Positions 1,168 through 49,220 of a stretch of DNA of 64,000 nt are shown here, piece by piece. The stretch lies in contig JBDRKL010000007.1 of assembly GCA_043814055.1 (NCBI GenBank), forward strand, positions 62,766 to 126,765. Direction: 5' to 3'. The stretch is from an archaeon. GTDB taxonomy: Archaea; Undinarchaeota; Undinarchaeia; Undinarchaeales; JBDRKL01. The translations under genes were made by a program, and so were the position numbers. Below the pieces are notes generated by a model. That model ran no database searches. It was not told where the DNA came from and saw only the letters and a program-made list of their open reading frames with translations. Within the stretch, counting starts at the first letter, position 1; each line of letters begins with the position of its first letter.

Positions 1168-2379
1168 TTAGTCCATTTGTATTTCGCCAAATGTTTTTAC
1201 AATAACATCAAGATCGTCTTGTGAAAGATACTGGTGGCAGCCAATGTAGAAACCATTTGAACCTGTATAGTCTGCGTTTGGTAGTTTTCCTTCATATGTA
1301 GCCTTAAGATAAGAATATGCTGCCTGCTGTGTTGGGATACAACCGAAGAGTGGTCTTGTCTCAACTCCACGCGACTCCAGCTCTGCTCTGAGTTTTTTCC
1401 TAGGTATTTTGTCAGGATTCTTTATTATAATTGGATATGCAAGATAGCTTACGTTCTCGTTGTATGGCGGAAGCTGTAGAACGTCAGAGTATTTTTTAAG
1501 ATTTTCATTTAGATACTTAACGTTATTTAACCTGCTTTTAGTTATGTCATCTGCTTTTTTTAGTTGGGTACCGGCAAGTGCTGCCTGAAACTCCATGGTC
1601 TTGAAGTTGTAGCCAATCAAATCGTGTGTGAATCTTGGGTCAAAATCATCGTCACCTTTGTAAGCTGCCATTTTTGGGCATTTCCCCTCGTTTCTTGTGC
1701 AGACTGGGCAGTCACACATGCGCCCATTTGCCTTGATGCGTTTGAGCAGTTTGTATATCTCAATGTCATCTGTTGTTATTGCACCCATCTCTCCCGCCTG
1801 TATGTTGTGGGCTATATAAAATGAGAAGTCCGCCAACAGAGAGAGCGATCCTGTTTTTTTGCCTTTGTACGTTGTCCCATGAGCCTGCGCAGAGTCCTCA
1901 AATGTAATCAAGCCATATTCTTTTGCGATTTTGTTTATTTCATCCATATCGCAGGGATAACCCATTAGGTGTACTGGCAGAATTGCTGCGTATTCAGATG
2001 AGTCGTCGACTCCCTCAAGATGAGCTTTTATGTTCTCAGGCGTGATTCCAAACGTTGCCGGATCTGTGTCAACATATACAGGTTCAAAGCCTGTTGTGAC
2101 TATTGCATTACTCGTAGCTATGTAGGTTAGAGGCGTGGTTATTATTTTTGACTTCTCTTTTATAGGGGTGATTGGGTGGTGTTTAAGAGCTGTAAGCCCC
2201 CCCATTATTGCACTTGTCCCAGAGCTTAGAGCCACTGCATATTTTGTCCCTATATACTCTGCAAACTCGCTTTCAAAATTTCTTACACACTCTGCCTCAG
2301 ATATTCGACCTGATTCCAGCACGCGAAGTACTGCTTCTTTCTCGTCTTTTCCAATAACAAAATCCCCTACATGTATCAT
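1168..2379 (-). CDS. DegT/DnrJ-family PLP/PMP enzyme, His-type (RfbH/ColD-like 4-keto-6-deoxy sugar 3-dehydratase)
   Basis: SSGTSA, EDSAQAHG; SFYIAHNI has His at the usual Lys position; GRMCDCPVC Cys cluster. Confidence 0.8.
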   Translation of the reverse strand: MIHVGDFVIGKDEKEAVLRVLESGRISEAECVRNFESEFAEYIGTKYAVALSSGTSAIMGGLTALKHHPITPIKEKSKIITTPLTYIATSNAIVTTGFEPVYVDTDPATFGITPENIKAHLEGVDDSSEYAAILPVHLMGYPCDMDEINKIAKEYGLITFEDSAQAHGTTYKGKKTGSLSLLADFSFYIAHNIQAGEMGAITTDDIEIYKLLKRIKANGRMCDCPVCTRNEGKCPKMAAYKGDDDFDPRFTHDLIGYNFKTMEFQAALAGTQLKKADDITKSRLNNVKYLNENLKKYSDVLQLPPYNENVSYLAYPIIIKNPDKIPRKKLRAELESRGVETRPLFGCIPTQQAAYSYLKATYEGKLPNADYTGSNGFYIGCHQYLSQDDLDVIVKTFGEIQMD

Positions 2380-2523
2380 TTCAAAGTTTCACCTCTTTCA
2401 TCAGCTTTGGAATCAACACAAAACTCAGCAATTTCTAGGGATTTTGTGTCTGATTTCAAAGTTTCACCTCTTTCACGGGCTTTGAAATGAGTACATTCAT
2501 AGATTTCATGGTCTGTACCTCAT
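2377..2523 (-). repeat. Two tandem start-codon dumbbell elements (69 nt + 75 nt)
   Basis: Minus strand AAATGA..AAATCA..AAATGA; each unit has hairpin 1 with a bulged G plus hairpin 2 ATTT/CCAAAG-N18-CTTTGAAAT with GAAAGAGGTGAAA in the loop. Confidence 0.85.
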
Positions 2524-3473
2524 TTTTTGTTTCGCCAATACTCCAAGATGTCTTTGAGCGTTGTGTCAAAGTCTATCTCAGGTTTCCAACCGGTCTGCTT
2601 GCAGAATTTTGTGTTGTCCCCAAGCAAAATTTGGACATCACTTGGCCTCATTCGCTCTGGGTCTTCCTTTACTTCTATTTTTGCGTCTGACATTCCCAAT
2701 AGCTTGTCCAGAACTTCCTGGATTGGGTGAGTTGTTCCACTGCAGATATTGTAGACATCTCCGGGTTCGCACTTCTCAACCGCGAGTAGGTATGCGCGAA
2801 CTGTATCTCGCACGTCAGTGAAGTCGCGCTTTGCAGTTAGATTTCCGACATTAATTATTGGATCTTTTTTATTGTTTTCAATGTCCACTATCTGCTTTGC
2901 AAAGTTTGAACAGACGAAAACACTGCCGCGTCTTGGACCGGTGTGATTGAACGCGCGCGTCCTAATTACTTTTACCCCGTATGACTGGAAATACTGGTAA
3001 CCGAGGTAGTCCTGCGCGACCTTGCTCACTGCGTACGGGCTCAGCGGCCTTAGCGGGTTCGTCTCCTTGATCGGAACTTCGTCTGGCATGACCATGCCAT
3101 ATTCCTCAGAAGAGCATGCTATCTGAATGGTTGGGTCTGCGTCTGATTCGCGGACTGCTTCAAAAAGATTTAGCTCCCCTATTAAATTGGTGTGCATTGT
3201 ATCTGCAGGGGAACGCCAGGACGCGGGGACAAAAGACTGTGCAGCCAAGTGGAAAATGTAATCAGGCTCGGATTCTTTTACAGCCGCTTTCATACTGTAT
3301 GCGTCGTGCAGATCTGCCTCTATAAGTTTGAGATTGTTTTGTATATGCTTTATGTTTTCTGAGTCGCTCCTCCAGCGGGTTAATCCATAGACCTCATGCC
3401 CTTTTTCAAGCAGGAGCTCTGCCAGGTGGCTTCCTGCGAAGCCGGTTATGCCGGTTATTAATGAGTTTGTCAT
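2520..3473 (-). CDS. gmd: GDP-mannose 4,6-dehydratase family
   Basis: LITGITGFAGSHL, HLAAQSFVPASW, PYAVSK, RAFNHTGPRR; start moved to ATG 3473 behind GGAGG. Confidence 0.85.
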   Translation of the reverse strand: MTNSLITGITGFAGSHLAELLLEKGHEVYGLTRWRSDSENIKHIQNNLKLIEADLHDAYSMKAAVKESEPDYIFHLAAQSFVPASWRSPADTMHTNLIGELNLFEAVRESDADPTIQIACSSEEYGMVMPDEVPIKETNPLRPLSPYAVSKVAQDYLGYQYFQSYGVKVIRTRAFNHTGPRRGSVFVCSNFAKQIVDIENNKKDPIINVGNLTAKRDFTDVRDTVRAYLLAVEKCEPGDVYNICSGTTHPIQEVLDKLLGMSDAKIEVKEDPERMRPSDVQILLGDNTKFCKQTGWKPEIDFDTTLKDILEYWRNKK

Positions 3474-3550
3474 TTCAAAGCCTCCTTGAATTTTACCAGC
3501 TTTGAAATACACACAAAGCTGGACACATTTGTTAAACTTTGTTGTGTCAT
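3471..3550 (-). repeat. Start-codon dumbbell element (77 nt) with AAATGACA duplication
   Basis: Direct repeat AAATGACA at both ends; stem 2 ATTTCAAAGC/GCTTTGAAAT is a perfect 10 bp; 26-aa mini-ORF 3470-3550. Confidence 0.85.
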
Positions 3551-3583
3551 TTTTACCTCCACCTATTCCGTAGGATTATAATT

Positions 3584-4408
3584 TTATTTCCACTCCTTTA
3601 TCGCCTTTTCGTAGCTTTCATTTGTGCCAAGGTCGTACCACGGACCTGAGTAGACATATCCAGAAAGTTTTCCCTGCTTTGCGAGCTTTGGGAAGACATC
3701 CTTTTCCAGCATTGCCTTTTTCTTGTTTGGCAGGTAATCAACAATGCTTGGCTCAAAAATGTAAAGACCTGCATTTATTAGGTTGCTAATGCGGTCTTTT
3801 GGCTTTTCAATGAATCCGGTTATTGCTGATCCGTTTAGAGTTGCAACACCAAATCGAGATGGATCCTTGACTGTTGTGAGTGCAATGGTTCCGGTAGAGT
3901 TTGAATTTAGATGAGTCTGGAGCATGTCAAGTACATCTATTTTAGAGAGAAGGTCGCCGTTCATCATTACGAACGTGCTGTCAATCTTGCCTTTCGCGAG
4001 CCGAAGCGGTCCTGCGGTTCCAAGCGGCTCTTTTTCAACTAAATATTCTATGTTCACACCTAGGTTGTTGCCATCACCTAAGTGGGCTATTATTTTTTCA
4101 GACATATGACCGACCGACAATAGAATATCGTTTATGCCAAAGCTTTTGAGGTTCAGGATAAGGTGTTCCACAAGAGCCCTTCCTTGAATAGGGATAAGCG
4201 ATTTTGGAACTTCGTAGGTTAATGGGCGGAGTCTTGTCCCAATACCCCCTGCGAGCACAACTGCTTTGCTTATGCCATTGATTTGAAATGCTTTTCTGAC
4301 AAGTTTCTCAACTGCAGCAGACCTGTTTTTGACAGTAATATTATCTATTGTTCCGTCTACTTTTTTAAGAATTCCCTTATCCAACGTCATGGTAATTCGC
4401 TTTTTCAT
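3584..4408 (-). CDS. Sugar-1-phosphate nucleotidyltransferase with N-terminal ribbon-helix-helix domain
   Basis: KKRITMTLD..L.K.D...NRSAAVEKLV (RHH pattern) followed by LAGGIGTRLRPLT, EPLGTAG, NGD, WYDLGT. Confidence 0.85.
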   Translation of the reverse strand: MKKRITMTLDKGILKKVDGTIDNITVKNRSAAVEKLVRKAFQINGISKAVVLAGGIGTRLRPLTYEVPKSLIPIQGRALVEHLILNLKSFGINDILLSVGHMSEKIIAHLGDGNNLGVNIEYLVEKEPLGTAGPLRLAKGKIDSTFVMMNGDLLSKIDVLDMLQTHLNSNSTGTIALTTVKDPSRFGVATLNGSAITGFIEKPKDRISNLINAGLYIFEPSIVDYLPNKKKAMLEKDVFPKLAKQGKLSGYVYSGPWYDLGTNESYEKAIKEWK

Positions 4409-4412
4409 AGAA

Positions 4413-4442
4413 GTATGATGATGTATGATAAGGGTATATAAA
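4413..4442 (-). promoter_or_regulatory. TATA box (TTTATATA) plus tandem ATCATAC direct repeat, candidate RHH operator
   Basis: GTATGAT at 4413-4419 and 4423-4429 (10-bp period) between the TATA box (4435-4442) and the ATG. Confidence 0.5.
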
Positions 4443-4459
4443 GCTAATGAACCAAAGAT

Positions 4460-5797
4460 TTACCCGGATGCTGCGCTCACTCCAAGATCCAATAGTTCTT
4501 TGGCACGAGCCTTTGTTTTTGCCTCTGCAAACACTCGGATTACTGGTTCGGTGCCGGATGCTCGAACCATTACAGAGCCATCTTCATAAATTGCTTTTAT
4601 GCCGTCCATTGTGATCAACTCTGCACCTGATACCTCAAGTTTTTTCAGTACATTTGCCATCACAGAACCTTTGGTTTCAGGGCTGCAGTTCATTTTTGTC
4701 TTTAATTGATAGTATTTTGGAACTTCCGATATCAATTGCTCAAGGAATTTGCCGGTTGATGCTAGAAGGTCGAGTAGTTTTGCCACAGTTGCCGAGCCAT
4801 CTCGCATAAAGCTTATCTCTGGGAATATGCTACCACCGTTTTCCTCAAAACCATACGCTGCCTTTGATTTCATAACGCTTTCCCCGATGTACTTTCCGCC
4901 GACTTTGGTCTTTACAACCTTGCCGCCCAGTTCATCTGCCACATCGTCTATAGCTTTTGAAGTTGCAATCGGTGTGACCACCTTACACCCTTTACTGTTG
5001 ATAAAAAAATTGTGGGCAAGCAATGTGCCTGTAACGTCTCCCATTATGAATTCACCCTGACCTGTTGCGAATATGGCTCTATCGCCATCTGTATCAAAAG
5101 CCACGCCAAAGTCTGGCTTTTCTTGTTTCACAACATCCAAAAATGTTGTCAAGGTTTCTGGTGTTGGCTCAGGCGGCCTTTCAAACGCTCCAATGCTTGT
5201 GTGGAGGGCAATTACTTCGCAGCCAAGAGATTCCAAAAAATCTGGAATGAAAAGGCTTTGGGCGCCGTTGCCGGTGTCAACTACTACTTTGAACCGCTTC
5301 GCTCGAATGGCATTCGCGTTTATATTATTTGTTAAAGCGCGTGCATAAGGCTCGAGGATGTTGCAGTTTTTGCTTGTTCCAGCGCTTCCATTCGGAGCGA
5401 GTAAAAACTTTTTTGAATTAAAGATTTTCTCAAATTCCACTTCTTCCTTTTCAGCGATTTCAAGGCTGCTGCCCATTATAAACTTAAGACCGTTCCACTC
5501 CGGCGGGTTGTGGGATGCAGTTATCATCGCACCTGCAGTATAGTTCTGCTTAACCGCAAAGCTTACTGAAGGTATTGGAGCTACACCAGCATCCTCAACA
5601 TCTGTGCCTGTGGAAAGCAGGCCACTTACGAATGCGTTTTTTAGCGCCTCTGAAGAGCTTCGTGTATCCCTTGCAACAAGAACCTTACCGCCCTTCAGGA
5701 AAGTGCCAAATGCCTTGCCAAGCCCAAGAACAAACTCTGGAGTAAAATCGCGGTTTGCAATGCCGCGGATTCCTGTTGTTGAGAAAAGTCCGGTCAT
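4460..5797 (-). CDS. Phosphomannomutase/phosphoglucosamine mutase
   Basis: GIRG, TASHNPPEWNG, DTDGDR, RASGTEPVIR. Confidence 0.92.
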   Translation of the reverse strand: MTGLFSTTGIRGIANRDFTPEFVLGLGKAFGTFLKGGKVLVARDTRSSSEALKNAFVSGLLSTGTDVEDAGVAPIPSVSFAVKQNYTAGAMITASHNPPEWNGLKFIMGSSLEIAEKEEVEFEKIFNSKKFLLAPNGSAGTSKNCNILEPYARALTNNINANAIRAKRFKVVVDTGNGAQSLFIPDFLESLGCEVIALHTSIGAFERPPEPTPETLTTFLDVVKQEKPDFGVAFDTDGDRAIFATGQGEFIMGDVTGTLLAHNFFINSKGCKVVTPIATSKAIDDVADELGGKVVKTKVGGKYIGESVMKSKAAYGFEENGGSIFPEISFMRDGSATVAKLLDLLASTGKFLEQLISEVPKYYQLKTKMNCSPETKGSVMANVLKKLEVSGAELITMDGIKAIYEDGSVMVRASGTEPVIRVFAEAKTKARAKELLDLGVSAASG

Positions 5798-5899
5798 TTA
5801 TAAATAGGACATAGGGAAATGCCTTTTTAAGCTTTTTAGAACACTGATACACAAGAGTTATAAAATGCTGCAGGACCTATACGAAGACAGAGACATTGG

Positions 5900-7117
5900 A
5901 TGAACACTAAAAAAAAGTTTAAAGTGCTGATTGTGCAGCATCATTACTACCCTTCGATAGGCGGGGCGCAGGAATATGTTAGAATGTTTGCCGAAGGGCT
6001 CGTGAAGAATGGGCATGAGGTTACAGTTTATACAACCAACAGCATGACAGGAGAGGATGTTCCTGGAATTTCGTTCAGGTGGCCGTTTTTTAATAGACCA
6101 AAGAAAAGGGCGCAGTTGGCGAGAGAGGAAACCATAAATGGCGTAAAGGTAAAGCGGTTTGATGTTAAGCTACGATTGTACAGTTTTAATTTTATGCCAG
6201 CTATGTTTAAAGAGCTGGGAGGGCTAGGGGATTATGATATTGTAAACGGCTGCGGGTTTAATTTGCTCAGCACGTATAAGGCCTGCAAAGCTGCGAAGAA
6301 AAACAATAAGCCTTTTGTGCTGTCTGCGATTGATATAACCATACCTAGAAGCCTGCCTGTTTTGGCAAAAATTTTCAAAGGAATATACGACTGTACGTAT
6401 GGGAAGTATATTGTTGCGAATTCACAGGCGTTTACAGCCCTTACAAAAGGACAGGTTCCGCAGTATGAAAGAGTTGGAGTCAAGGCGAATGATGTAACTG
6501 TGATAGAAAGCGTAATTGATTTGAAAAAATACAGGCAAAAACCACGAGGGAATTTTAGACGAAAGCATGGGCTGAAGAAAGAAGACAGGTTGATACTATA
6601 TGTTGGGCGGCTTATCGAACACAAAGGTGTGCAGGATGTCATAAATATGATGCCAAAAATTCTTGAGAAGCACGCAAACGCAACGTTCCTGATTGCGGGG
6701 GTTGATGGCGGGTACACAGGTGAGCTTGAAAAATTAATTGAGAAAAAAGGACTGAAGAGTTCTGTTAAAATGCTTGGGGCACTTGGCAAGGAAGAGCTCT
6801 TGGATGCATACGCAGACTCTGAGATATTTGTGCTGCCAAGCAACATGGAAGGCTTTGGGATAGTGATGCTCGAGGCTATGGCCTCTGGAACTCCGTGCGT
6901 TGCATATGATATAGAGAACGTGAGGGAAGTTATTTTAAACAACAAAACTGGGTTTCTTGCAAAGGATGAGAAAGAATTTAGAGAGCAGATTTTGGAGTTG
7001 CTAGGGGACAAAAAGAAACTTGGTTCATTTAGAAAAGCAGGGCTTGAGGACGTGAAGAAATACTCAAAAGAGACGTTTGCAAAGAAATTTGAAAAAGTTT
7101 ATCAAGAGTTGGATTAG
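5900..7117 (+). CDS. GT4 glycosyltransferase
   Basis: GGAQ, YVGRL..HKG, PSNMEGFGIVMLEAMASG. Confidence 0.9.
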   Translation: MNTKKKFKVLIVQHHYYPSIGGAQEYVRMFAEGLVKNGHEVTVYTTNSMTGEDVPGISFRWPFFNRPKKRAQLAREETINGVKVKRFDVKLRLYSFNFMPAMFKELGGLGDYDIVNGCGFNLLSTYKACKAAKKNNKPFVLSAIDITIPRSLPVLAKIFKGIYDCTYGKYIVANSQAFTALTKGQVPQYERVGVKANDVTVIESVIDLKKYRQKPRGNFRRKHGLKKEDRLILYVGRLIEHKGVQDVINMMPKILEKHANATFLIAGVDGGYTGELEKLIEKKGLKSSVKMLGALGKEELLDAYADSEIFVLPSNMEGFGIVMLEAMASGTPCVAYDIENVREVILNNKTGFLAKDEKEFREQILELLGDKKKLGSFRKAGLEDVKKYSKETFAKKFEKVYQELD

Positions 7118-7800: not shown

Positions 7801-7801
7801 T

Positions 7802-9417: not shown

Positions 9418-9420
9418 TTT

Positions 9421-9993: not shown

Positions 9994-10589
9994 TCTTTTT
10001 CTATTTTCTCCTTGAGCGCTGCGCACAACAGATGCGAGAGCACTGCGTGGAAGCCTTCTGTGAGCGGCGTGGATTCTACCGGCACAATTAGGCAATGGTC
10101 AGCCATCTGCTTCATTGCTCCGCCGTCAAAACCGGCAAGGCCGATTGCAACTCCACCATTGTCCTTTGCATACTGAAGCGCCTTGAGCAGGTTCTGGGAC
10201 CAGGTGCCTGCCTTGTCAGAGCCAGAGCCGCCGTGCACGCTGAACGCGATTACCACGTCGCCTTCCTTGAAGAAGTTGATGAGCTGTTCGGAGTAAACGT
10301 CACCCCAGCCGTTGTCATTTGTAAGAGCGCTGACAAGCGGAATGTTGTCCACGAGCGCAAGCGCCTTGAAGCGCTGTTTGCCTTCAACATTGCAGTATTT
10401 GTTCAGGTCACATGCCATGTGCGTTGCAGTTGATGCTGAGCCGCCATTTCCAATAAGGAAAACTGTTGAGCCGCGCTTCCACGCCTCAAAGAGCGCATCT
10501 ATGACTGCATCTATATCCTTTTGTGAAATATTTTTCACTATATCCTCCATGTTGGAGAAGTATTTTTCAAGAAATTCTTGGTTGTTCAT
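9990..10589 (-). CDS. gmhA: Sedoheptulose-7-phosphate isomerase (SIS domain)
   Basis: GNGGSASTATHMACDL, ALTND, GFDGG. Confidence 0.85.
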   Translation of the reverse strand: MNNQEFLEKYFSNMEDIVKNISQKDIDAVIDALFEAWKRGSTVFLIGNGGSASTATHMACDLNKYCNVEGKQRFKALALVDNIPLVSALTNDNGWGDVYSEQLINFFKEGDVVIAFSVHGGSGSDKAGTWSQNLLKALQYAKDNGGVAIGLAGFDGGAMKQMADHCLIVPVESTPLTEGFHAVLSHLLCAALKEKIEKE

Positions 10590-10665
10590 TTCAAAGTTTC
10601 ACCTCTTTCAGCAGCTTTGAAATAAACACGAAACTGCTTGACAGATTTATTGTTTTGTGCCTCAT
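10587..10665 (-). repeat. Start-codon dumbbell element (76 nt) with AAATGA duplication
   Basis: ATGA[G]GCACAAAAC/GTTTCGTGTTTAT plus ATTTCAAAG/CTTTGAAAT; SD GAGGTGA in loop 2; 24-aa mini-ORF 10591-10665. Confidence 0.88.
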
Positions 10666-14776: not shown

Positions 14777-14883
14777 ATTGTTTCAGTCGTGAATCAGCCT
14801 ATATAAACGTTATAGAACAAGAGTTCATACCCAAGATTCGGAAACAAAGATATTTATAGATTACAAAGAGAGGGTAGAGAATA

Positions 14884-15894: not shown

Positions 15895-15900
15895 GTCTGA

Positions 15901-25283: not shown

Positions 25284-26161
25284 AAATAGTAATACCGATG
25301 TCAGGAGCAGGGACAAGATTTGTTAAGGCCGGGTATGAGGAGCCGAAGTCGCTGCTCATGGTAGACGGCAAGCCGATAATAGAGCACATAGTTGATATGT
25401 TTCCAGGCGAGGACGATTTCATATTTATTTGCAATCCAGAGCACTTGGAAAAGACAAATTTGAGAGAAGTTCTTGAAAGGATTAAACCGACTGGGAAAAT
25501 AATTGAGGGCGAGAAGCACAAGAAAGGCCCGGTTTACACTGTGCTTCCGTTTTTGGACGAGATAGGTGATGATGAACAGGTTATTGTTAATTACTGCGAC
25601 TTTGGATGGGACTGGGATTATGAGGATTTCAAGAGGAAAATGGAGGAGACCAAGTGCGACGGATGCGTTGTGGCTTACAAGGGATACCACCCGCATCACT
25701 TTGGAGACACTTATTATGGATATATGAGATGGGACGAGAATAATTACATGCTTGAAATCCGAGAAAAAGAGCCCTTCACAAACAATAGACAAGAAGAGTA
25801 TGCGTCTTCAGGGACTTATTATTTCAGAAAAGGGGAATTTTTGAAAAAATACTTCAAGGAAGTTGTGGACAAGGACATAAACAAGTATGGAGAGTACTTC
25901 GCGAGCCTTCCATACAATCCAATGGTGCGAGATGGTTTGAAAGTTTACATTTATGAGATTCCGGTTTTCCTGCAGTGGGGCACCCCGCAGGATTTGGAAG
26001 AGTACGAAGCGTGGTCCAGGCATTTCTTGGGAGAGGATAAAGGAAAGACTAGCGAGCCAAAGGGAAGAAAAGTTGATTATGAAATAAAACTTGAGCCAGG
26101 GTCAGAAGAGTACAAAGAAGCAGAAGCATACTGGGCGAAATATTTTGAGGGTAAAAAATAA
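25280..26161 (+). CDS. Sugar-phosphate nucleotidyltransferase-like protein
   Basis: IPMSGAGTRF..GY..PK, YCD, WGTPQDL; TTG start. Confidence 0.8.
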   Translation: MKIVIPMSGAGTRFVKAGYEEPKSLLMVDGKPIIEHIVDMFPGEDDFIFICNPEHLEKTNLREVLERIKPTGKIIEGEKHKKGPVYTVLPFLDEIGDDEQVIVNYCDFGWDWDYEDFKRKMEETKCDGCVVAYKGYHPHHFGDTYYGYMRWDENNYMLEIREKEPFTNNRQEEYASSGTYYFRKGEFLKKYFKEVVDKDINKYGEYFASLPYNPMVRDGLKVYIYEIPVFLQWGTPQDLEEYEAWSRHFLGEDKGKTSEPKGRKVDYEIKLEPGSEEYKEAEAYWAKYFEGKK

Positions 26162-26235
26162 TGGCAGTTGGAAGCTTCCAAAAATATATCAGCTCCCAAC
26201 TACATTTAACTCACAAAAGGCAGGGAAGTTAAATG
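26161..26235 (+). repeat. Start-codon dumbbell element (72 nt) with AATGGCA duplication
   Basis: ATG[G]CAGTTGGAAGCT/AGCTCCCAACTACAT plus ATTTAACT/AGTTAAAT; 23-aa mini-ORF 26161-26232 ending TAA ATG. Confidence 0.8.
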
Positions 26236-27757: not shown

Positions 27758-28464
27758 AACCAAAACTTTCAATCGTCGTGCCATGCTACGATGAAGAAAA
27801 GAACATACCGCTCATTTTGGATAGATTCAAGAGTGTCATAAAGACAAAGGATGTTGAACTTATTTTGGTTGACAATGGTTCGAATGATAATACTCCACAG
27901 GTCTTGAAAAAGCTTCTGCCAAAGTATAAATTCGCGCGGTCTGTTAGGGTTAAGAAAAATATTGGATATGGCTGGGGTATATTTTCAGGATTGAAATCTG
28001 CAAAGGGTGAGTTCCTTGCGTGGACTCATGCAGATATGCAGACAGATCCAAAAGATGTTATTACTGCATTCACATTCATCAAGAAGCAGGAGAACCCTGA
28101 AATGACTTATGTCAAGGGTAGAAGAAGAGAACGTCCGCTGTTTGATGGGGCGTTTACCTTGGGAATGAGCATAGCAACAACTTTGCTCCTTGGAAAGTTT
28201 ATGAGCGATATAAATGCTCAGCCAAATGTATTCCACAGAGAATTCTTTAATCTGCTTAGAAAAAAGCCTCCAACGGATTTCTCATTTGATACTTATGCGT
28301 ATTATCTTGCAAAGAAGAATGGGTATAAAGTTGTGAAAATTCCAGTTTATTTCAAAAAAAGAATTCATGGAGAGTCACACTGGAATGTGAGCTTCGGCGC
28401 GAAGTGGAAGTTCATCAAGCGCACAGGGAAATTCATAATGATGCTTAGGAGAGAATACAAATGA
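27754..28464 (+). CDS. GT2 glycosyltransferase (polyprenol-phosphate sugar synthase-like)
   Basis: VPCYDEE, VDNGS, NIGYG, HADMQ, RIHGES. Confidence 0.85.
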   Translation: MKPKLSIVVPCYDEEKNIPLILDRFKSVIKTKDVELILVDNGSNDNTPQVLKKLLPKYKFARSVRVKKNIGYGWGIFSGLKSAKGEFLAWTHADMQTDPKDVITAFTFIKKQENPEMTYVKGRRRERPLFDGAFTLGMSIATTLLLGKFMSDINAQPNVFHREFFNLLRKKPPTDFSFDTYAYYLAKKNGYKVVKIPVYFKKRIHGESHWNVSFGAKWKFIKRTGKFIMMLRREYK

Positions 28465-29042
28465 TGCTCATAATGCACCGCGTGAACACAATTGAAGGGC
28501 TTAAGAACGTTTCGGCCGAGTACGGGGTTGAAGTGGATGTAAGAACTGATGGGAACAAGCTGATTTTAAACCACGAGCCAATGGAAGGCGGTGACGAGCT
28601 TGAGGAATACTTGAAAGAGTACAAACACAAATTCATAATATTCAATATAAAAGAAGCTGGGATTGAGGATAAGGTTAGGGCGCTTGCTGAAAAATATAAG
28701 GTAAAAGATTACTTTCTGCTTGATGTGGAATTCCCATATATCTACAAGGCGGCGCGGAGTGGTGTGAAAAACATTGCAATACGATTCTCAGAGGATGAGC
28801 CTATTGAGGCTGCGCTCGAGTACAGGGGGAAAGTTGATTGGGTGTGGATTGATACTAACACTAAATTGCCGCTTGATGCTGATGTTGTTGAAAAGCTTAA
28901 AGGGTTTAAAACATGCCTTGTTTGCCCGAGCAGGTGGGGAAGGCCAGAAGATATAAAGGAGTATAAAGAGAAAATAAGCGAGCTTGGGATTAAACTTGAT
29001 GCTGTTATGACTGAAGAAAAATATGTAGGAGATTGGAAATGA
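28461..29042 (+). CDS. GDPD/PLC-like phosphodiesterase TIM-barrel protein
   Basis: HRVN, GVEVDVR, HEP, NIKE, WVWID. Confidence 0.65.
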   Translation: MMLIMHRVNTIEGLKNVSAEYGVEVDVRTDGNKLILNHEPMEGGDELEEYLKEYKHKFIIFNIKEAGIEDKVRALAEKYKVKDYFLLDVEFPYIYKAARSGVKNIAIRFSEDEPIEAALEYRGKVDWVWIDTNTKLPLDADVVEKLKGFKTCLVCPSRWGRPEDIKEYKEKISELGIKLDAVMTEEKYVGDWK

Positions 29043-31761: not shown

Positions 31762-31838
31762 GACGGTAATGCAGATATCGGTTTCGGCAATTAATTATTC
31801 ATAAATTATATAAATGCTATTTTTAAGTACTTGAGCTA

Positions 31839-32648: not shown

Positions 32649-33112
32649 CCAAAAAATACAATTTTGTTCTTGATGTTGACGGGGTTTTGACAACCGGGCA
32701 GTTTTTGTACTCACCCAATGGGAAGGAGTACAAAGTTTTCGGCCCACACGACGCGGATGGGCTTGAGCTGATAAAAGATGAGGTTGAGATATTGTTCATA
32801 AGCGCGGACAAGCGCGGCTACCCGATTTCTGAGAAAAGGGTGAAGGATATGGGATACCCTATAGAGCTTGTCACTGCTGCAGAGCGTTATGAGTATATTG
32901 AGAAGAAATATGGATTTGAGAACACAATTTTCATGGGCGATGGCATAAATGACGTTTCGCTCTTGAAAGCGTGCAAGCTTGGAATTGCTCCTGCAAATGC
33001 AAGGGTTGAAGCAAAAGAAGCGGCAGACTTTGTTACAGAGTCAAATGCGGCAGAGGGTGCGGTTTGCGACGCGTGCATTGAAATAAAGAAGAGATTTTTG
33101 GAGGAAAAATGA
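32645..33112 (+). CDS. KdsC-like HAD phosphatase
   Basis: DVDGVLT, D..GL, MGDGIND, GAV. Confidence 0.8.
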   Translation: MTKKYNFVLDVDGVLTTGQFLYSPNGKEYKVFGPHDADGLELIKDEVEILFISADKRGYPISEKRVKDMGYPIELVTAAERYEYIEKKYGFENTIFMGDGINDVSLLKACKLGIAPANARVEAKEAADFVTESNAAEGAVCDACIEIKKRFLEEK

Positions 33113-37566: not shown

Positions 37567-37606
37567 ACCATTAAGTTTATAATCCACTATAAAGTAGAGG
37601 AGTATA

Positions 37607-40197: not shown

Positions 40198-40228
40198 TTT
40201 GCTTTTGTTTTATTAAGCTCCCACATTT

Positions 40229-41020: not shown

Positions 41021-41021
41021 T

Positions 41022-42455: not shown

Positions 42456-42557
42456 TTTTCACCAATCAATCCGCATTCCTTTTAAGTATATGGACTACAA
42501 GAAAGGGGTTAATAAAACTTATGATACTGGAATACAGTCCAAGGATTAAAAAGGAGA

Positions 42558-43640: not shown

Positions 43641-43981
43641 TTTACCAGAGGCAGCTCCCCAGTAATCTTGTCAATCGCGTTTTCCTTGTTCGGGCCGATT
43701 GCAATTGCGGTTATTGTGCCTGGTGGAATTTCAGTGAGCCCGGCATCCTTGATGAGAGCTACGGCGAGCCCGGCATCCTTCGCAGCCTGGAAAAGTTTTT
43801 GCAAATCCTCAAGGGTTTTTGCCTCCAGAACCACTTTCTTGCTGCCCTCAGAGTGCCACGCCTCACGGTCTCCTGGCTCTGCTTTTGAGCTCGCCTCAAT
43901 GCTCGCGTGGCAGGCCTGCGCTATTGCTTTGCCCAGGCTAAGTTTGAGATCTTTGCGGAGCACAATTGCCTGCTTATACAT
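43637..43981 (-). CDS. pth2: Peptidyl-tRNA hydrolase Pth2
   Basis: KQAIVLRKDL, GKAIAQACHA, DAGLTEIPPGT, GP; start ATG 43981. Confidence 0.92.
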   Translation of the reverse strand: MYKQAIVLRKDLKLSLGKAIAQACHASIEASSKAEPGDREAWHSEGSKKVVLEAKTLEDLQKLFQAAKDAGLAVALIKDAGLTEIPPGTITAIAIGPNKENAIDKITGELPLVK

Positions 43982-44015
43982 AATGTATTTATGAGCGCGA
44001 AGCTTTAAATGGGTT

Positions 44016-44375
44016 ATGAAAACTGTTCTTGCAGGTGGAGTGTTTGATTTGTGGCACGAAGGCCACAGGTACTTCCTGCAGGAGGCGAAGAAGCTCGGCG
44101 ACGAGCTTGTTGTGGTTGTGGCGAATGACGCCAGCGTCAAGAAAAAGATTAATAACAAGCAGGCTGCGAGGGCAAACATTGTGCGGCAGCAGGGCATTGC
44201 GGACAGGGTTGTGATTGGGGACGCTAAGGATTTTATGAAAACTGTGCGGAAGATTAGGCCGAACGTGATTGCGCTTGGCTATGACCAGAAGAATCCGGTG
44301 CTGGAGAGTGGGATAAAAGTTGTGAGAATTAAAAAGTTTGGAGATTATAGCAGTTCAAAACTGAGAAAGAAGTGA
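44016..44375 (+). CDS. ribL: Archaeal FAD synthetase / cytidylyltransferase family
   Basis: GVFDLWHEGH, LVVVVAND, ALGYDQ, SSSKL. Confidence 0.75.
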   Translation: MKTVLAGGVFDLWHEGHRYFLQEAKKLGDELVVVVANDASVKKKINNKQAARANIVRQQGIADRVVIGDAKDFMKTVRKIRPNVIALGYDQKNPVLESGIKVVRIKKFGDYSSSKLRKK

Positions 44376-44378
44376 GTT

Positions 44379-44756
44379 TTACTTGCAGAAGCAGAGGTAA
44401 TCAAAGCTACCATACCCAATTCTTGAATATTCAAGACCTTTCGTCTGGCACCAGCTATTACAGCACTCCGCGTCGGTTATACAGGAGAAACCCATATTTT
44501 CCTTGCAGAATTTGAAAGAAGTTGGTGTAACAGGATATCTGCTATTGCATCCTTGTGAATTAGAATTGAGAGCACCCCCTACTTTTCCAACTATTGCAGT
44601 GCCGTAATAGTTGCTTCTGCAGCAGGAGTAACGGGTTTCTTCGTAGTGCGGATTAGAACCTTTAATCTCGTCTGGAAGCGTGAAGAAACCAAAAGTTGTA
44701 ACAGCTATTATGATAAATACAAAAATTATCATCACAAGGAGGTTTTTTGAAATCAT
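44379..44756 (-). CDS. Membrane-anchored/secreted 10-Cys domain protein
   Basis: Start MISKNLL at 44756, N-terminal TM, RYSCC..GTAIV..GCN..FKFC..CCNSWC..CFC. Confidence 0.7.
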   Translation of the reverse strand: MISKNLLVMIIFVFIIIAVTTFGFFTLPDEIKGSNPHYEETRYSCCRSNYYGTAIVGKVGGALNSNSQGCNSRYPVTPTSFKFCKENMGFSCITDAECCNSWCQTKGLEYSRIGYGSFDYLCFCK

Positions 44757-44760
44757 TTTA

Positions 44761-45594
44761 TCAATCCCTGCAGAAGCACATATAAGCGTACAGATTAGCA
44801 CCTGGCCTTGAAAATTCCTGTTCCTGTTCAAGGCACCAGTTATGACAGCAGAGAACTTCGTCATCAGATTTGGAACAGTATTCCCCGCCAGAAACGCTGC
44901 ATAATTTGAAGTTATTACTTGGCATCCAATACTTTTCGTTGCAGCCAGTTCTTAGTGTGCCGTCCGTTACTATTGCAGTTCCAGATCCAGTACAGCATGA
45001 ATATCTGATTTCATCTTCAATCGGGTTTGGATTGGTCCGCTCCAATGAGGTGTCAAATACAAGTTCTATGGTTTCAGCCTGTTTTATTTGCTCTTTAGTC
45101 AATGACTCACAGCTGTTGTAGGTTTTTTTAATGCCCTCTACTATGAGGAGTTCATTCCAGGATAGTGCGTCGCTGTTTAATATGAGATTCGTGGAGTGAC
45201 CTGAATATGAATAGAGGTTATTTGTATTGAGTTTTAAATACACGGTTGCTTCGCCTTTTCTTGGCACTTCAATGTAACCCTGATATAACGGCGAAGCGTC
45301 TGCGCTCTTGGACTTTGAAAATGAAACAGTATATGAGTTCATTACATAGCCGGTCGTGCTGTCGCGGAAACAGATGAGAGGCGCTTCGGGCGCGTAATTT
45401 TTTGAAAAGTAAAAATCATTCCTGAGTGTTACAGTTTGTAAAGTCAGGAGGGAGACGTGGTCTTGACTATAGATTGTTACAAACTCAGGGGTTTCCGTTT
45501 CAACACTAAGCGGAACAGAGTACAGATCAAAAAACACCATAACTGCCATAATAAAAACAATTGCTATTATGATGATTATGTTCTTTGAAAGCAT
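44761..45594 (-). CDS. Membrane-anchored protein with a C-terminal 10-Cys domain, paralog of the downstream gene
   Basis: MLSKNIII N-terminal TM; RYSCC..GTAIV..GCN..FKLC..CCHNWC..CFC. Confidence 0.7.
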   Translation of the reverse strand: MLSKNIIIIIAIVFIMAVMVFFDLYSVPLSVETETPEFVTIYSQDHVSLLTLQTVTLRNDFYFSKNYAPEAPLICFRDSTTGYVMNSYTVSFSKSKSADASPLYQGYIEVPRKGEATVYLKLNTNNLYSYSGHSTNLILNSDALSWNELLIVEGIKKTYNSCESLTKEQIKQAETIELVFDTSLERTNPNPIEDEIRYSCCTGSGTAIVTDGTLRTGCNEKYWMPSNNFKLCSVSGGEYCSKSDDEVLCCHNWCLEQEQEFSRPGANLYAYMCFCRD

Positions 45595-45603
45595 TCTATG
45601 TCC

Positions 45604-45873
45604 TCAGTGCTTGGGCGACTTTCTGACCCCTAGCTTCACGTCCCTTCCGAAGATTACCATTACTCCTGAAGATGCCAACAATACCAGAAAGATTAGCCCA
45701 CTGTTCAAATCAAATTTGACCAGTATGTAGGCAATCAATATCAGATATATTGAAGCCGAGAGGCCGTACATCACGTTGGAGTACTTCTTGGTTGTGGCGT
45801 AGATGAAAATGGTCAAGAGAACCATTCCGGTTATACCGTAAACCGCTACACTTAGTGCTGCTTGTTCGTACAT
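45604..45873 (-). CDS. Small 3-TM membrane protein
   Basis: Hydrophobic ORF coupled by TGATG to the upstream gene. Confidence 0.6.
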   Translation of the reverse strand: MYEQAALSVAVYGITGMVLLTIFIYATTKKYSNVMYGLSASIYLILIAYILVKFDLNSGLIFLVLLASSGVMVIFGRDVKLGVRKSPKH

Positions 45874-46049
45874 CACAAACCACGCTCCTTAAAGTATCTG
45901 GCACCGAAAAAGAATATCACTACAAGGCATGCCAGAATTATTGTTTTTACCTCTCTAGACAGGTTCAGAATTACTTCCCATGCAAAGTATATAATTGCAA
46001 TTATGAACAGGAGAATTGCAATCATATAGAAGATTTTTTGCAGGTCCAT
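45873..46049 (-). CDS. Small 2-TM protein (58 aa), absent from the ORF track
   Basis: Manual translation MDLQKIFYMIAILLFIIAIIYFAWEVILNLSREVKTIILACLVVIFFFGARYFKERGL*; TGATG coupling to the next gene. Confidence 0.65.
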   Translation of the reverse strand: MDLQKIFYMIAILLFIIAIIYFAWEVILNLSREVKTIILACLVVIFFFGARYFKERGL

Positions 46050-46101
46050 AGGTGAGGTAGAGAATTAGTTTATAAATAGGTTTCCCTAAAGCTCAAAATC
46101 T

Positions 46102-46755
46102 ATGATTAAAATAATCGGTACTTCGCACGTGTCCCCGCAGAGCCTGAAAGAGATTGATAGGGTTATTGCAGAGGTCAAGCCGGACTGCGTTGCGCTGGAG
46201 CTGGACAGGAACCGATTTGAGGCGCTGAAGCGCGGCGACCACGTGAACCTCTCAGCAATTAGATACATCGGACTCAAGAGCTACTTTGTCGCGAAGATTC
46301 TTTCAATAATCCAGGAGCATCTTGGGAAAAAGACAGGGGTAATGCCTGGAGAAGAGATGATGGAGGCGTTCAAGGCAGGAGCGCGGAGCAAGGCGGATAT
46401 CGCGCTGATTGACAGAGATATTCGAGTGACGCTGGAGAGGATGAAAACGATTCCGCTGAGAGAGAAATTAAAGATTATTCTTGGGGTTTTCAAGAAAGTT
46501 CCAGTTGGGGAAAAGTTTGACCTTAAGAAAGTTCCTTCTGATAAATTAGTTGAGAATATGGTTGAGCACGTCAAGGAGGTTAGCCCGACGCTTTACAAGG
46601 TTTTGATTGAGGAGAGGGATATTCACATGGCGCGGGTCCTTGTTGAGTTGAGCAAGAAATATCCAAAGATTGTTGCAGTGGTTGGAATGGGACACAAGAG
46701 AGGAATGGAGAAGGAGCTGGCTAAGATAAAAACTGCAAAGCAAACCAGCGAATGA
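46102..46755 (+). CDS. TraB/PrgY (pheromone shutdown) family protein
   Basis: IGTSHVS, VALELD..R, PGEEM, DRDIRVT, ERD..M, VVGMGH. Confidence 0.88.
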   Translation: MIKIIGTSHVSPQSLKEIDRVIAEVKPDCVALELDRNRFEALKRGDHVNLSAIRYIGLKSYFVAKILSIIQEHLGKKTGVMPGEEMMEAFKAGARSKADIALIDRDIRVTLERMKTIPLREKLKIILGVFKKVPVGEKFDLKKVPSDKLVENMVEHVKEVSPTLYKVLIEERDIHMARVLVELSKKYPKIVAVVGMGHKRGMEKELAKIKTAKQTSE

Positions 46756-47772
46756 TTACTTAATCCCCAAGCTCTTGTCTGTCTTCTTAATACTCTCTTC
46801 CTTGCTCGCTGTGTCCATCATTGCGCGGATGCAGTCCACGTTTTCCGGGATTACTATTGATTCCTGTGGCACTGCCTGGAACATAAACAGTTCCTTGTCT
46901 TTCACGCCGATTGAGTCTTCCCACACGAGGTTCTCGTACATGTCATAGCGCGGCCTGCCGAAGTCGCGGGCGTATTCAACCATCTCTGCAGTTGAGAGTA
47001 TTCCGTCAGAGGACTTGAGCATCTTTATGCGCGGAAGCTTGTTGAACAATTCAACAACATCGTCTGCCTTCGCGTCCTTCTTGAGCTGGACCATCAGGGA
47101 GTGCGCGTGCATAAAGGTTGTTGAAACCTTGAATGCGCTCGTGATTATGTTCAGGTTTGGAAGCACTGTGAGCACATCTGGGCCGTGGTGGCTCGGCACT
47201 GTGATTGGGTTTGGCATTATCGCGTCTATTGGCCCGCTCTTTGAGCCCCCGGGGTCTGACGCTCTGCGCACCAGGACTACGCGGGCTTTTTCAACACCGA
47301 ACTCTGCGTCAACTGCTCCGAGCACTCTTGAGAGCCCTGTGGTATTGCAGCTCACAACTCTTACGTGGTCCTTTCCCTGTGCCTCGTCATAATTTGAGTA
47401 TGCGTTGAATGATGTTCCTGTTAGCTCGTGCTTCTCAGCGCCCTGGTAAATTGCCTTGATGCCTTTTGGAACATAGTATTTTTCCTTGTTCTCAGCACCC
47501 ATCTTTTTTGGAGAGCAGTCAACTATGATGTCGCACTTTTCAAGAAGGTCGTCTATTGTTCCAGCGAGCTTAATGCCTGCATCGTCAAAAGATTTTGTAT
47601 TGTCAGGGATGCCGCAGTAAAGGTCAAAGCCCTTCTCAACTGCCATTTTGCTTTCCCAAGTTGGGCGGGTTTTCGTGACTCCGACAACTTCCATGTCGTC
47701 CTGGAGCTTTACCGCGTCCGCAACGCGCTTTCCGATTGTTCCGTAACCGTTAATGCCTACTTTAATTGTCAT
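46756..47772 (-). CDS. gap: Archaeal (type II) glyceraldehyde-3-phosphate dehydrogenase
   Basis: NGYGTIGKRVA, VVSCNTTGL, SHHGPD, QESIVIPEN. Confidence 0.95.
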   Translation of the reverse strand: MTIKVGINGYGTIGKRVADAVKLQDDMEVVGVTKTRPTWESKMAVEKGFDLYCGIPDNTKSFDDAGIKLAGTIDDLLEKCDIIVDCSPKKMGAENKEKYYVPKGIKAIYQGAEKHELTGTSFNAYSNYDEAQGKDHVRVVSCNTTGLSRVLGAVDAEFGVEKARVVLVRRASDPGGSKSGPIDAIMPNPITVPSHHGPDVLTVLPNLNIITSAFKVSTTFMHAHSLMVQLKKDAKADDVVELFNKLPRIKMLKSSDGILSTAEMVEYARDFGRPRYDMYENLVWEDSIGVKDKELFMFQAVPQESIVIPENVDCIRAMMDTASKEESIKKTDKSLGIK

Positions 47773-47915
47773 TTTATTCCTCCTTTGATCTGTTTAGCCC
47801 ACTTCGCGAGCGAAGCGAGTGAATGTGGGCTCATGCAGAGGTGCCACCCTCCGCGGCAAGGCGGAGTGCCGGAGCCATTTATTCCTACTTTAATTGTCAT
47901 CTTAGTCCTCCTTTG
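47738..47915 (-). repeat. Diverged ~50-nt direct repeat of the gap SD plus first 12 codons (128-nt period) flanking a GC-rich hairpin insert
   Basis: CAAAGGAGGACTAAG-ATGACAATTAAAGTAGGAATAAATGGCTCCGGCAC versus CAAAGGAGGAATAAA-ATGACAATTAAAGTAGGCATTAACGGTTACGGAAC. Confidence 0.85.
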
Positions 47916-49146
47916 GTTTGTTTTTCCCGCCTTTGAATTTCTTCGCTGAGTTTCTCAGTGTCTGGAACGCGATGAGGTCCTCGCCCGCGAGGAACGAGAG
48001 GCACGCACCACCGCCCGTGCTTATGTGGGTTATCTTGTCCTCAAGCCCGAGGTGCACAACCGCGGTTGCGATGTGCCCGCCGCCGACCACTGTGAACGCC
48101 TTTGACTCCGCGACCGCTTTCACGATTTCGTGCGTGCCCTTGGCAAAGTTCTTCTCCTCAAATATGCCCATCGGGCCGTTCGCAACTATCGTGCCAGCAG
48201 TTTCAAGAATATACTTGTACCTGCCGATTGTTCCAGTGCCAATGTCTGCAATCCTGTAGGGCAAAGGTAGTTCTGAAAGCGAGACCTCAAGGCGCTGGCC
48301 GTGCTTGTCAACCGCGACATCCATCGGCACTTCAATCTGAGTTCCGTACTTGTTGAGAAGATTCTTTGCCTGCTCCACAAGTTTTGGGTAGTCCTCCATG
48401 TACTCTAAGCCGCGGATTTCATAGCCCTTTGCAATCAGGAAAATGTTTGCAACCAGACCACCTGTTAGTATCTTGTCCGCAATTTTTTTCTCAAGGTACT
48501 GCTCAACGGATTTCAGCGAAGTTTTTACCTTTGACCCGCCGACCACGAAAACGCTCGGCTTTTTCTTTGACGTTATGACCTTGGTGAGCATTTCAAACTC
48601 GTTCTGCATAACTCGGCCTGCTGTAGAGGGTAGGAGCTCTGTGAAGCCAACCATTGAAGGCTGGGAGCGATGCGCTGCAGCGAAAGCGTCGCTCACGAAA
48701 ATGTCGCCGAGCGGGGCGAGCGCGCGGATGAAATACGAGTTGGACTGAACGTCCGGCGGGCGCTTTAGGAGCTCTTCTGAAAGGAAGCGCACGTTTTCAA
48801 GAAGGATTATTTCGCCGTCCTTCATCCCCTTTATTTTTTCGCAGGCGGTCGGACCGATTATGTCCGGAACATGCTCAACCTTGAGGCCGAGTTCGTTGAG
48901 GCGGGCGGCGTGCTTTTTTAGGGAGGTGAAGTCGTAGTCATTGCCTGGCCTGCCCTGGTGAGCAAGCACAACAACCTTGGCGCCTTTCTTTGAGAGCTCC
49001 TTGAGGGTTTCCGCGTGCTTTATTATTCTGCGGTCGTCAAGGAACTTGTCAGTTTCAATGTCTATCGGGCAGTTCAAGTCCACTCGAACAAAAGTTGTCT
49101 TGCCCTTGAAGTCCAGGTCGTCAATTGTCATAATTCCGTCAATCAT
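47902..49146 (-). CDS. pgk: Phosphoglycerate kinase
   Basis: RVDLNCP, HQGRP, LLENVRF, DAFAAAHR, NGPMGIFE, STGGGA. Confidence 0.95.
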   Translation of the reverse strand: MIDGIMTIDDLDFKGKTTFVRVDLNCPIDIETDKFLDDRRIIKHAETLKELSKKGAKVVVLAHQGRPGNDYDFTSLKKHAARLNELGLKVEHVPDIIGPTACEKIKGMKDGEIILLENVRFLSEELLKRPPDVQSNSYFIRALAPLGDIFVSDAFAAAHRSQPSMVGFTELLPSTAGRVMQNEFEMLTKVITSKKKPSVFVVGGSKVKTSLKSVEQYLEKKIADKILTGGLVANIFLIAKGYEIRGLEYMEDYPKLVEQAKNLLNKYGTQIEVPMDVAVDKHGQRLEVSLSELPLPYRIADIGTGTIGRYKYILETAGTIVANGPMGIFEEKNFAKGTHEIVKAVAESKAFTVVGGGHIATAVVHLGLEDKITHISTGGGACLSFLAGEDLIAFQTLRNSAKKFKGGKNKPKED

Positions 49147-49220
49147 TTCTTTTCACCTCTTTCATCAACAAAGACAGGAACTCGAATGCTGTCAGATTTC
49201 TCAGGGCATTTGAGTCTCAT
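49144..49220 (-). repeat. Start-codon dumbbell element (74 nt) with AAATGA duplication; stem 2 degenerate
   Basis: ATGA[G]ACTCAAATGC/GCATTCGAGTTCCT; TGATGAAAGAGGTGAAA shared with the 2.4-kb copy; 25-aa mini-ORF 49143-49220. Confidence 0.8.

Follow-up and report, generated by a model that had tools for sequence, protein, structure and literature searches.

A family of two-hairpin repeats at translation start codons in an Undinarchaeota genome

The closest analogues of the element described here appear to be the REP2 repeats of Neisseria and IR repeats of Borrelia, together with the PATEs of haloarchaea. REP2 and the Borrelia plasmid IR are described as occurring in about 20-30 copies per genome, immediately upstream of genes and without terminal inverted repeats (Delihas 2011, PMC3184786), each with a ribosome-binding site (RBS), an ATG, two stem-loops and a translatable frame. 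REP2, a bacterial repeat of 120-150 bp, is further said there to contain a promoter and a 5' untranslated region (UTR) (PMC3184786). PATEs are archaeal and not long enough to hold a transposase gene. The account of them gives two similar near-terminal palindromes, a short terminal oligonucleotide, no terminal inverted repeats and heterogeneous families, and notes mobility in Haloquadratum, where the IS200-type transposase genes of one strain are all pseudogenes (PMC3119063). In that account the genomes carrying PATEs are rich in IS605-type transposons, and PATEs make no target duplication and have no tie to start codons (PMC3119063). The element considered here lies in a 64-kb stretch of contig JBDRKL010000007.1 from an undinarchaeote (the window, whose numbering is used for the unit coordinates), and does not appear to be a member of any named family. 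It is probably a lineage-specific, non-autonomous hairpin repeat that has been copied into translation starts, mostly at stop/start junctions inside operons, and would represent selfish DNA with a built-in translation relay. Each insertion keeps the original Shine-Dalgarno (SD) sequence and start codon at its 5' end and regenerates a start codon at its 3' end, with a short open reading frame (mini-ORF) starting at the former.

Like REP2, the element stands upstream of genes and contains an RBS, an ATG and two internal stem-loops. It differs from REP2 in being archaeal, 60-135 nt long and mostly operon-internal, on stop/start overlaps; it also keeps the old start codon for the mini-ORF, duplicates host bases and has no match in Rfam, the likeness being one of description rather than of compared REP2 sequence. 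With PATEs it shares subterminal palindromes at both ends (almost all of the element consists of its two covarying hairpins) and the lack of terminal inverted repeats, whereas its direct repeat includes host bases, it sits at gene starts, no TnpA or TnpB was found in the assembly, and a conserved 4-6-nt target oligonucleotide is missing, the left flank reading AAATG in 12/27 loci by manual count, with ATG alone invariant. A classical miniature inverted-repeat transposable element was considered and rejected: the ends are direct repeats (ATG...ATG), not inverted ones, and there is no duplication of fixed length. The sole end-to-end complementarity is a 5-nt CAAAG/CTTTG core. Literature searches found no description of an archaeal start-codon hairpin repeat.

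The genome is represented by an assembly of 979,685 bp in 14 contigs (G000), 82% complete and containing an archaeal 16S rRNA (1506 bits). Within the element, the native SD is followed by the first ATG(A/G), hairpin 1 and hairpin 2, whose 3' arm contains the real ATG. Stem 1 has the consensus ACACAAAGC / GCTT(C/T)GTGT with a loop of 4-17 nt, and stem 2 the consensus CATTTCAAAG / CTTTGAAATG with a purine-rich loop of ~19 nt. This loop contains GGAGGTGA, a full SD sequence, since the 16S 3' end of the genome reads GATCACCTCCT. The overall size ranges from ~60 to 135 nt. Measured from ATG to ATG, the length is 76 nt in 11/28 tabulated loci and 59, 62, 65, 67, 72, 74 or 77 nt in others, with three-hairpin variants of 121-130 nt and two tandem dimers of 137 and 144 nt. 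A scan of the window against Rfam returned no match at the gathering score.

Pairing was assessed in a model-fitted alignment, which leans towards the structure and comprises 27 genomic copies plus one on a metagenome contig (28 in total). Standard pairs fill 86.6% of its cells, and 14/21 pairs have changed on both sides, in 42 cells, values reached by none of 500 column shuffles. In a control in which the 3' partners were slid by 1-3 columns, pairing amounts to 20-47%, a large difference even for an alignment fitted in this way. Compensatory changes are found in both helices, which bears out the initial annotation, made from the window alone, in its claim that pairing is kept while the stems diverge. 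RNAalifold on the raw MAFFT alignment returned just five stem-2 pairs, owing to a one-base offset between sub-families in stem 1, and was replaced by a hand-set structure with the model-based alignment.

The six units that the initial annotation placed at five loci of the window (Table 1) are all present at their positions, with an ATG at the start and the ATG of a long open reading frame (ORF) at the end of the locus. The first ATG of unit A (2523-2521) forms an ATGA overlap with the TGA that ends the GDP-mannose dehydratase gene, and the unit's 3' end, the internal junction of the window dimer, is ATC instead of ATG; the frame from this first ATG is 5 codons long and closes at an ATGA from which a frame of 17 codons begins anew. 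Unit C, with the direct repeat AAATGACA, has a mini-ORF of 26 codons whose stop is the TGA of an ATGA. In unit D the first ATG (10665) overlaps the upstream stop (ATGA), and the 24-codon mini-ORF ends with TGA 4 nt before the real ATG. The stop of the gene preceding unit E, presumably triose-phosphate isomerase to judge by its position beside pgk, is overlapped by the unit's first ATG (49220), and a 25-codon mini-ORF ends in ATGA. The strongly diverged unit forms the hairpins GTTGGAAGCT/AGCTCCCAAC and then CATTTAACT/AGTTAAATG, with GGGA alone in the loop and the direct repeat AATGGCA, and its 23-codon mini-ORF ends in a TAA that abuts the NTP-transferase ATG; the covariance search described below does not recover it. 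By Pfam, the hosts in the window are a DegT aminotransferase, a GDP-mannose dehydratase, a SIS-domain protein, PGK and an NTP transferase. The stems, the AAAT in loop 1 and the purine-rich motifs in loop 2 that were first reported are seen in all six units, but across the genome AAAT is not universal, as judged by eye from the alignment. The four AAATGA sites first named as empty are real stop/start overlaps with long ORFs on either side.

Table 1. Units, host genes and unoccupied junctions in the window (R1, covariance model built from 26 copies; C7, contig)
Feature	Position	Strand	Details
Unit A	2452-2523	-	first unit of tandem dimer; R1 match C7:65214-65292, 66.4 bits
Unit B	2377-2454	-	second unit of dimer; R1 78.8 bits; ends on DegT ATG (2379-2377)
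Unit C	3471-3550	-	R1 76.3 bits; first ATG 3550; real ATG 3473-3471, GDP-mannose 4,6-dehydratase
Unit D	10587-10665	-	R1 88.2 bits; real ATG 10589-10587, SIS-domain (GmhA-like) gene
Unit E, diverged	49144-49220	-	R1 35.6 bits, E 0.001; ends on pgk start 49146-49144
Strongly diverged unit	26161-26235	+	same architecture; begins ATGGCA; host NTP-transferase gene
DegT aminotransferase gene (host)	1171-2379	-	Pfam E 5.8e-86
GDP-mannose dehydratase gene (host)	2523-3473	-	Pfam E 1.3e-86
Phosphoglycerate kinase gene (host of unit E)	47905-49146	-	Pfam PGK E 9.8e-123
Unoccupied AAATGA stop/start overlap	28459-28464	+	long open frames both sides
Unoccupied AAATGA stop/start overlap	111-116		long open frames both sides
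Unoccupied AAATGA stop/start overlap	29037-29042		long open frames both sides
Unoccupied AAATGA stop/start overlap	33107-33112		long open frames both sides

The family extends over the whole genome. A covariance model (R1) built from 26 copies, used alongside an nhmmer profile, has 31 matches at E<=0.001 in the assembly and none in 40 other genomes, nor in the 16 other genomes of the phylum. Diverged copies, among them the 26.2-kb unit, unit E and two on contig C12 with the stem 2 CATCAACATCGG/CCGATGTTGATG, were added from a hairpin-on-ATG scan and from weaker matches, which brings the total to ~36 start codons. The stem-2 arm CTTTGAAATG occurs 33 times in the assembly, about two thirds of the occurrences being 3' ends of elements. 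Placement on start codons is pronounced: in 27/31 nhmmer matches (E<=0.001) the ATG at the end begins a frame of 47-729 codons, while a frame of at least 47 is open at only 34% of all ATG triplets in the assembly. The four exceptions are two dimer-internal junctions and two copies where the gene starts at a TTG inside the element's own CTTTGAAAT; from their N-termini, read by eye, we take one of these genes to be PurD-like and the other helix-turn-helix-like. One copy, C9:267-337, falls between two genes, after the stop of the first and 5 nt ahead of the ATG of the second, on the stop-codon context AAAATAAGA; both of its ATGs are replaced by ATA, inside the 10-nt direct repeat CAAAATAAGA. Among the matches in this genome, no copy is inside a gene or at the 3' end of one. 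The repeat family and its preference for start codons, both proposed from the window, thus stand; the mini-ORF, the genome-wide spread, the three-hairpin variants and a parallel family in a relative had escaped the initial annotation.

The host genes are functionally unrelated. Outside the window they include, as named from their N-termini, EF-2, both transketolase halves, pyrI, ndk, RpoP, a Spt4-like gene, porB, Mnh subunits and a topo VI B-like gene. At most loci a long co-directional ORF ends a few bases from the first ATG or overlaps it (ATGA). The copies are locally clustered, with 9 neighbour pairs closer than 2.5 kb against 3.0 expected (p = 0.001).

Insertion is supported by the corresponding junctions of relatives. 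Five junctions were compared with those of 12 other species genomes of the order (four families; the phylum counts 17 species genomes), a set in which the present genome is the sole representative of its family. The split transketolase pair tktN-tktC occurs in 10 relatives, none with the element: in eight the genes overlap (as ATGA, as TAATG or by 11 nt) or the second starts a few codons past ATGA, and the other two have a small Cys-rich ORF between the genes. The pyrB-pyrI junction reads ATGA in 10/12 relatives and TAAAATG in one. Upstream of ndk the element is absent from all 12; the stop of the preceding gene lies at -15 to +5 in nine, two have either a longer plain spacer or none on record, and one junction is N-masked. 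At porA-porB, compared in three relatives, there is a 10-nt overlap in two and a simple repeat in one, and the stop of the gene before pgk lies at -4 to +1 of the pgk ATG in 11/12. Over the five sites, 44/49 junctions of relatives are compact (ndk counted as 11/12 without a hairpin spacer in view). At all five, the first ATG of the present genome sits at the overlap position of the relatives, among conserved codons for the C-terminus of the upstream protein. The encoded proteins align to those of relatives from residues 1-8, which makes the second ATG the true start. The empty orthologous junctions predicted for related genomes are accordingly seen at order level, and gain in this lineage, rather than loss elsewhere, is the parsimonious polarity suggested by the comparison.

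Near-identical copies at unrelated genes demonstrate copying between loci, as expected of the mobile repeat first proposed. Two three-hairpin copies of 133 nt, before the Spt4-like gene (contig C11) and porB (contig C10), are identical at 131/133 positions and have unrelated flanks; a segmental duplication is ruled out by the difference in flanks. Unit B is identical at 73/78 positions to the second unit of the dimer C10:34987-35066, before an unrelated gene, while the median pairwise identity of copies is 67%. Such copies, together with the absence of the element from the five orthologous junctions, rule out chance or ordinary conserved UTR hairpins. In metagenome contigs, a stricter pattern scan yielded one 1.9-kb contig (L170; R1 69.7 bits), whose coding sequence has no match in the present assembly; the gene after its copy we take, from its N-terminus, to be L19e. 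A looser pattern scan of genome contigs gave, among the matches listed, scattered single ones, mostly bacterial and two of Thermoplasmata-type archaea, which were not used.

The direct repeat that contains the start codon and brackets the element is upheld by the larger set. The exact repeat measures 3-9 nt in 27 loci and 16 nt in the metagenome contig, and identity runs past the ATG into the second codon of the host: the summed run is 37 against 20.8, a value reached by 0/20,000 permutations, and a run of at least 3 past the ATG occurs in 7/25 loci (again 0/20,000). At all six loci where copies start with ATGGCA or ATGACA, the gene starts alike. The repeat is real, includes host-specific bases and has no fixed length.

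The frame opened by the first ATG is free of stops until the last 21 nt in 27/28 loci, against 8.8 expected from region shuffles. Over the same stretch there are 7 stops in frame 0, every one of them in the window dimer (contig C7), compared with 32 in frame +1 and 26 in frame +2. The mini-ORFs are 19-46 codons long, and in 27/28 the stop falls at -4 to +13 relative to the real ATG: it is a TGA 4 nt ahead of that ATG (13 loci), the TGA of ATGA (nine), part of TGATG (two), a TAA abutting the ATG (one) or a stop 4 or 13 nt inside the gene (two). The frame stays open despite loop-1 lengths that shift it, the 3' half being read as ...ISKL.K..KL or ...FKAGE.GE.LK, and it is open also in the 130-nt variants (42 codons) and across an entire dimer (46 codons). 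Because it is open in all these differently read forms, translatability is conserved and the peptide is not. An SD-like 4-mer stands before the first ATG in 21/27 loci and in loop 2 in 26/27, against a background of 0.16. These features fit the early suggestion that the element stays harmless by preserving translation.

A relay can be proposed from this arrangement. The old start codon would open the mini-ORF of ~19-46 codons, and a ribosome arriving from the upstream gene or recruited by the native SD would translate across both hairpins, melting hairpin 2, which otherwise pairs the new ATG. Termination would follow at a TGA that either overlaps the real ATG (ATGA) or precedes it by 4 nt, and the ribosome would re-initiate at the real ATG, helped by the GGAGGTGA in loop 2. 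Stop/start overlaps of the ATGA and TGATG type couple genes by termination-reinitiation (PMC6728339), and the element uses ATGA, TGAnnnnATG and TGATG at the end of its mini-ORF. Systems of that kind and the ermC leader are native arrangements or single-operon regulators, whereas the element is a dispersed repeat family. Rickettsia palindromic elements are hairpin repeats that are tolerated as the host frame survives, and they become part of the protein; the present element stays outside the protein, its mini-ORFs stopping around the real ATG. Rickettsia palindromic elements are listed among the repeats that insert in frame into genes, as are BRE and RUP (PMC3184786).

A second family of the same architecture is seen in a genome of the same order but another family (G005), its homology to the first being unproven. 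Its pyrB-pyrI junction holds a 156-nt spacer with four hairpins (L219:1310-1465; L192), which has 11 plus-orientation BLAST matches in that genome (copies in L220-L229) and two weak matches in another, G001. The last hairpin, GATTTTCGC / GCGAAAATG, pairs the start codon, and the nine other copies read end in ...TCGCGAAAATGG on the ATG of a gene, save one in a different context; one of these genes we take to be L19e. The 5' edge reads AAAATCA, like the ATC variants of the first family. R1 on these copies gives a single end-to-end sense match (16.6 bits, E 0.22). In the same genome a different insertion precedes pgk (L238), bringing to two the junctions occupied in both genomes; the L19e-like start is occupied in both G005 and the metagenome contig, and 5' junctions in G005 read GAAATAA. 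Junctions shared by the two genomes could be hot target sites or old shared insertions.

Several observations weigh against a mobile repeat with a translation relay. No enzyme of mobility was recognized in the 82%-complete assembly: there is no match to the Y1 transposase (PF01797), no reverse transcriptase and no tyrosine recombinase was found, and the only TnpB match (PF07282, 16.5 bits) is below cut-off, inside a 638-codon frame. The repeat length varies, unlike a classical fixed target-site duplication, although the variation may have arisen through decay of an older fixed duplication. The relatives are distant (46-73% protein identity), which leaves old presence and loss elsewhere as another course of events, and the comparison in which insertion appears is one between lineages. 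Shared descent of the copies means that the open-frame and length statistics overstate independence, though the loops differ widely; lengths divisible by 3 are found in 2/28 loci but make up 2/12 distinct lengths, which is not significant given that descent. The SD in loop 2 lies 12 nt from the ATG in the sequences of units A-D, a long spacing, and the G005 family has no SD in its last loop. No sign of selection on a fold in mRNA emerges: the strand test is uninformative (32 G.U-type against 36 A.C-type cells), and the antisense strand folds with a more negative z-score in 6/7 units. Translation of the mini-ORF and re-initiation are steps that we infer from sequence.

Part of the same evidence would suit a host regulatory leader, a regulon-wide translational attenuator or upstream-ORF switch in which the dumbbell of pairings 1:2 and 3:4 alternates with a central 2:3 helix and leader translation sets the exposure of the ATG, as in ermC; we consider this rather unlikely. 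An ermC-type leader works through a leader ORF and four-segment alternative pairing. The element likewise has a leader ORF (27/28 loci) and a real ATG paired in hairpin 2, and its hairpins are sequence paralogues, with CAAAGC...GCTTTG present twice, so that a central helix of the stem-1 3' arm and the stem-2 5' arm is possible. That helix is 74.5% paired; its outward extension shows matched changes (TC/GA, GC/GC, ACC/GGT, CTCC/GGAG, AC/GT), with a summed run of 34 against 19.2 (p = 0.0002 in a permutation with no control for relatedness), and the minimum-energy fold of the EF-2 copy is the alternative rod with the central helix. Yet alternative pairing is a trivial outcome of paralogous hairpins, and covariation of the central helix is unsupported by shuffles, 45/500 of which reach the observed number of doubly changed cells. 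Moreover, the hosts share no function, there is no conserved stalling peptide, the 3' half is read in two frames, the SD stands unsequestered in a loop, and the relatives' orthologous junctions work without the element. Removal at the RNA level, by a bulge-helix-bulge intron or a self-circularising RNA that restores ATGA, is extremely improbable. Taking out one unit does restore an ordinary junction and the ends are complementary to the centre, but in the minimum-energy folds of seven units, with no dedicated bulge-helix-bulge search, the 5' ATG region stays single-stranded and an uninterrupted helix contains the 3' ATG, so that the two 3-nt bulges around a 4-bp helix that define such an intron do not form; an SD, ATG and stop signals of its own would be pointless in a removed segment, and Rfam gives no match.

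The manner of copying has more than one reading: the hairpins may be the substrate of a trans-acting enzyme, or SD-ATG microhomology may suffice. A terminal-only IS200/IS605 derivative of the PATE kind, a single-stranded hairpin moved in trans by a Y1 HUH transposase and inserted 3' of an AAAT/AAATG that is repeated at the right end, is distinctly unlikely. Two palindromes of similar sequence without terminal inverted repeats, a non-coding strand whose structure is equal or better, and the local clustering speak for it, and the size is near that of 52-bp terminal-only PATEs, apparently mobile in Haloquadratum (PMC3119063). Against it stand the lack of a Y1_Tnp match and of a TnpB above cut-off, the minority of loci with an AAATG left flank, and an equivalent of the cleavage site within stem 2 rather than beside it, going by the geometry of solved IS608 complexes; the repeat also reaches host-specific bases, while IS605-type elements are described as making no target duplication (PMC3119063). 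A trans-acting HUH route thus agrees with strand-neutral pairing and with two palindromes of like sequence, but not with a repeat that varies in length and takes in host-specific bases. Spread without a transposase would proceed by a template switch or ectopic gene conversion that enters at the recipient's SD-ATG and returns at the donor's 3' SD-ATG, inserting the hairpins and duplicating the start; this speculative route fits both the repeat and the location, and is nonetheless doubtful. The almost exclusive occurrence on start codons, 27/31 directly on the ATG, the variable repeat, the matching ATGGCA/ATGACA sub-families, the SD on both sides, a loop 2 homogenised within each dimer and the absence of any transposase found all agree with it; but repeat families are not known to be built in this way, C9:267-337 occupies a stop-codon context, the last loop of the G005 family lacks an SD, and compensatory stem changes suggest that the hairpins themselves are needed. 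The earlier idea of an excised single-stranded circle, whether an attC or HUH substrate or a circular RNA, gains no support from the assembly, given the search for Y1, TnpB, reverse transcriptase and tyrosine recombinase reported above, and no strand is singled out. For the hairpin repeat copied into translation starts, start codons are perhaps the sole harmless sites in a genome with hardly any non-coding DNA, and selection alone could explain the distribution; real targeting is nevertheless indicated by the host-specific bases in the repeat and by the complete absence of copies from neutral positions elsewhere. A wider view, that the phylum harbours undescribed mobile hairpin elements that home to start sites, with one fast-evolving family per lineage (this genome and L170; G005 and G001), transposase-free spread via SD-ATG microhomology or centre/start pairing, and obligatory coupling relays that the host may use as switches, seems fairly improbable as a whole.

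A repeat whose sole tolerated or targeted site is the start codon is unusual, as is payment for an insertion by rebuilding the SD, the ATG and the stop-start relay. If the relay works, the element would be a natural portable translational-coupling cassette and a clean archaeal system for termination-reinitiation and start-site selection. In annotation there is a risk that gene callers, drawn to the first ATG by its good SD, mis-start genes or call phantom ORFs of 20-46 codons. Several families of the same architecture in a group of streamlined ~1-Mb genomes also raise the question of how selfish DNA persists with almost no non-coding space.

The family looks modular. The copies C9:28237-28362 and C12:143447-143560 carry extra GC-rich hairpins (CGGACGC...GCGTCCG and others) between hairpins 1 and 2, or before hairpin 2 alone, and in the 130-nt variants a second hairpin module, CACAATGAA...TTCATTGTG, is nested centrally with TTCATT flanks. 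Among the relatives' junctions, the Cys-rich ORF of ~30 codons between the transketolase halves (L174 and L175, from G009 and G001) starts at the ATGA overlap and is zinc-ribbon-like by eye, and simple repeats of the CCCAAACCTCAAAC type occur at the porB start of G002 (L215). In the assembly no repeat exceeds 556 bp, and hence there is no multi-copy insertion sequence. Phage_integrase (XerA-type) has no match there and is present in all 14 control genomes; the missing 18% may explain this. Some contig ends overlap exactly, by 133 nt between the end of C2 and the start of C10 and by 87 nt between C4 1-87 and C7 1-87, and are probably joined in the chromosome. Local repeats of 83-245 nt with 78-100% identity lie at C6:72487-75351 and C4:75958-76151.

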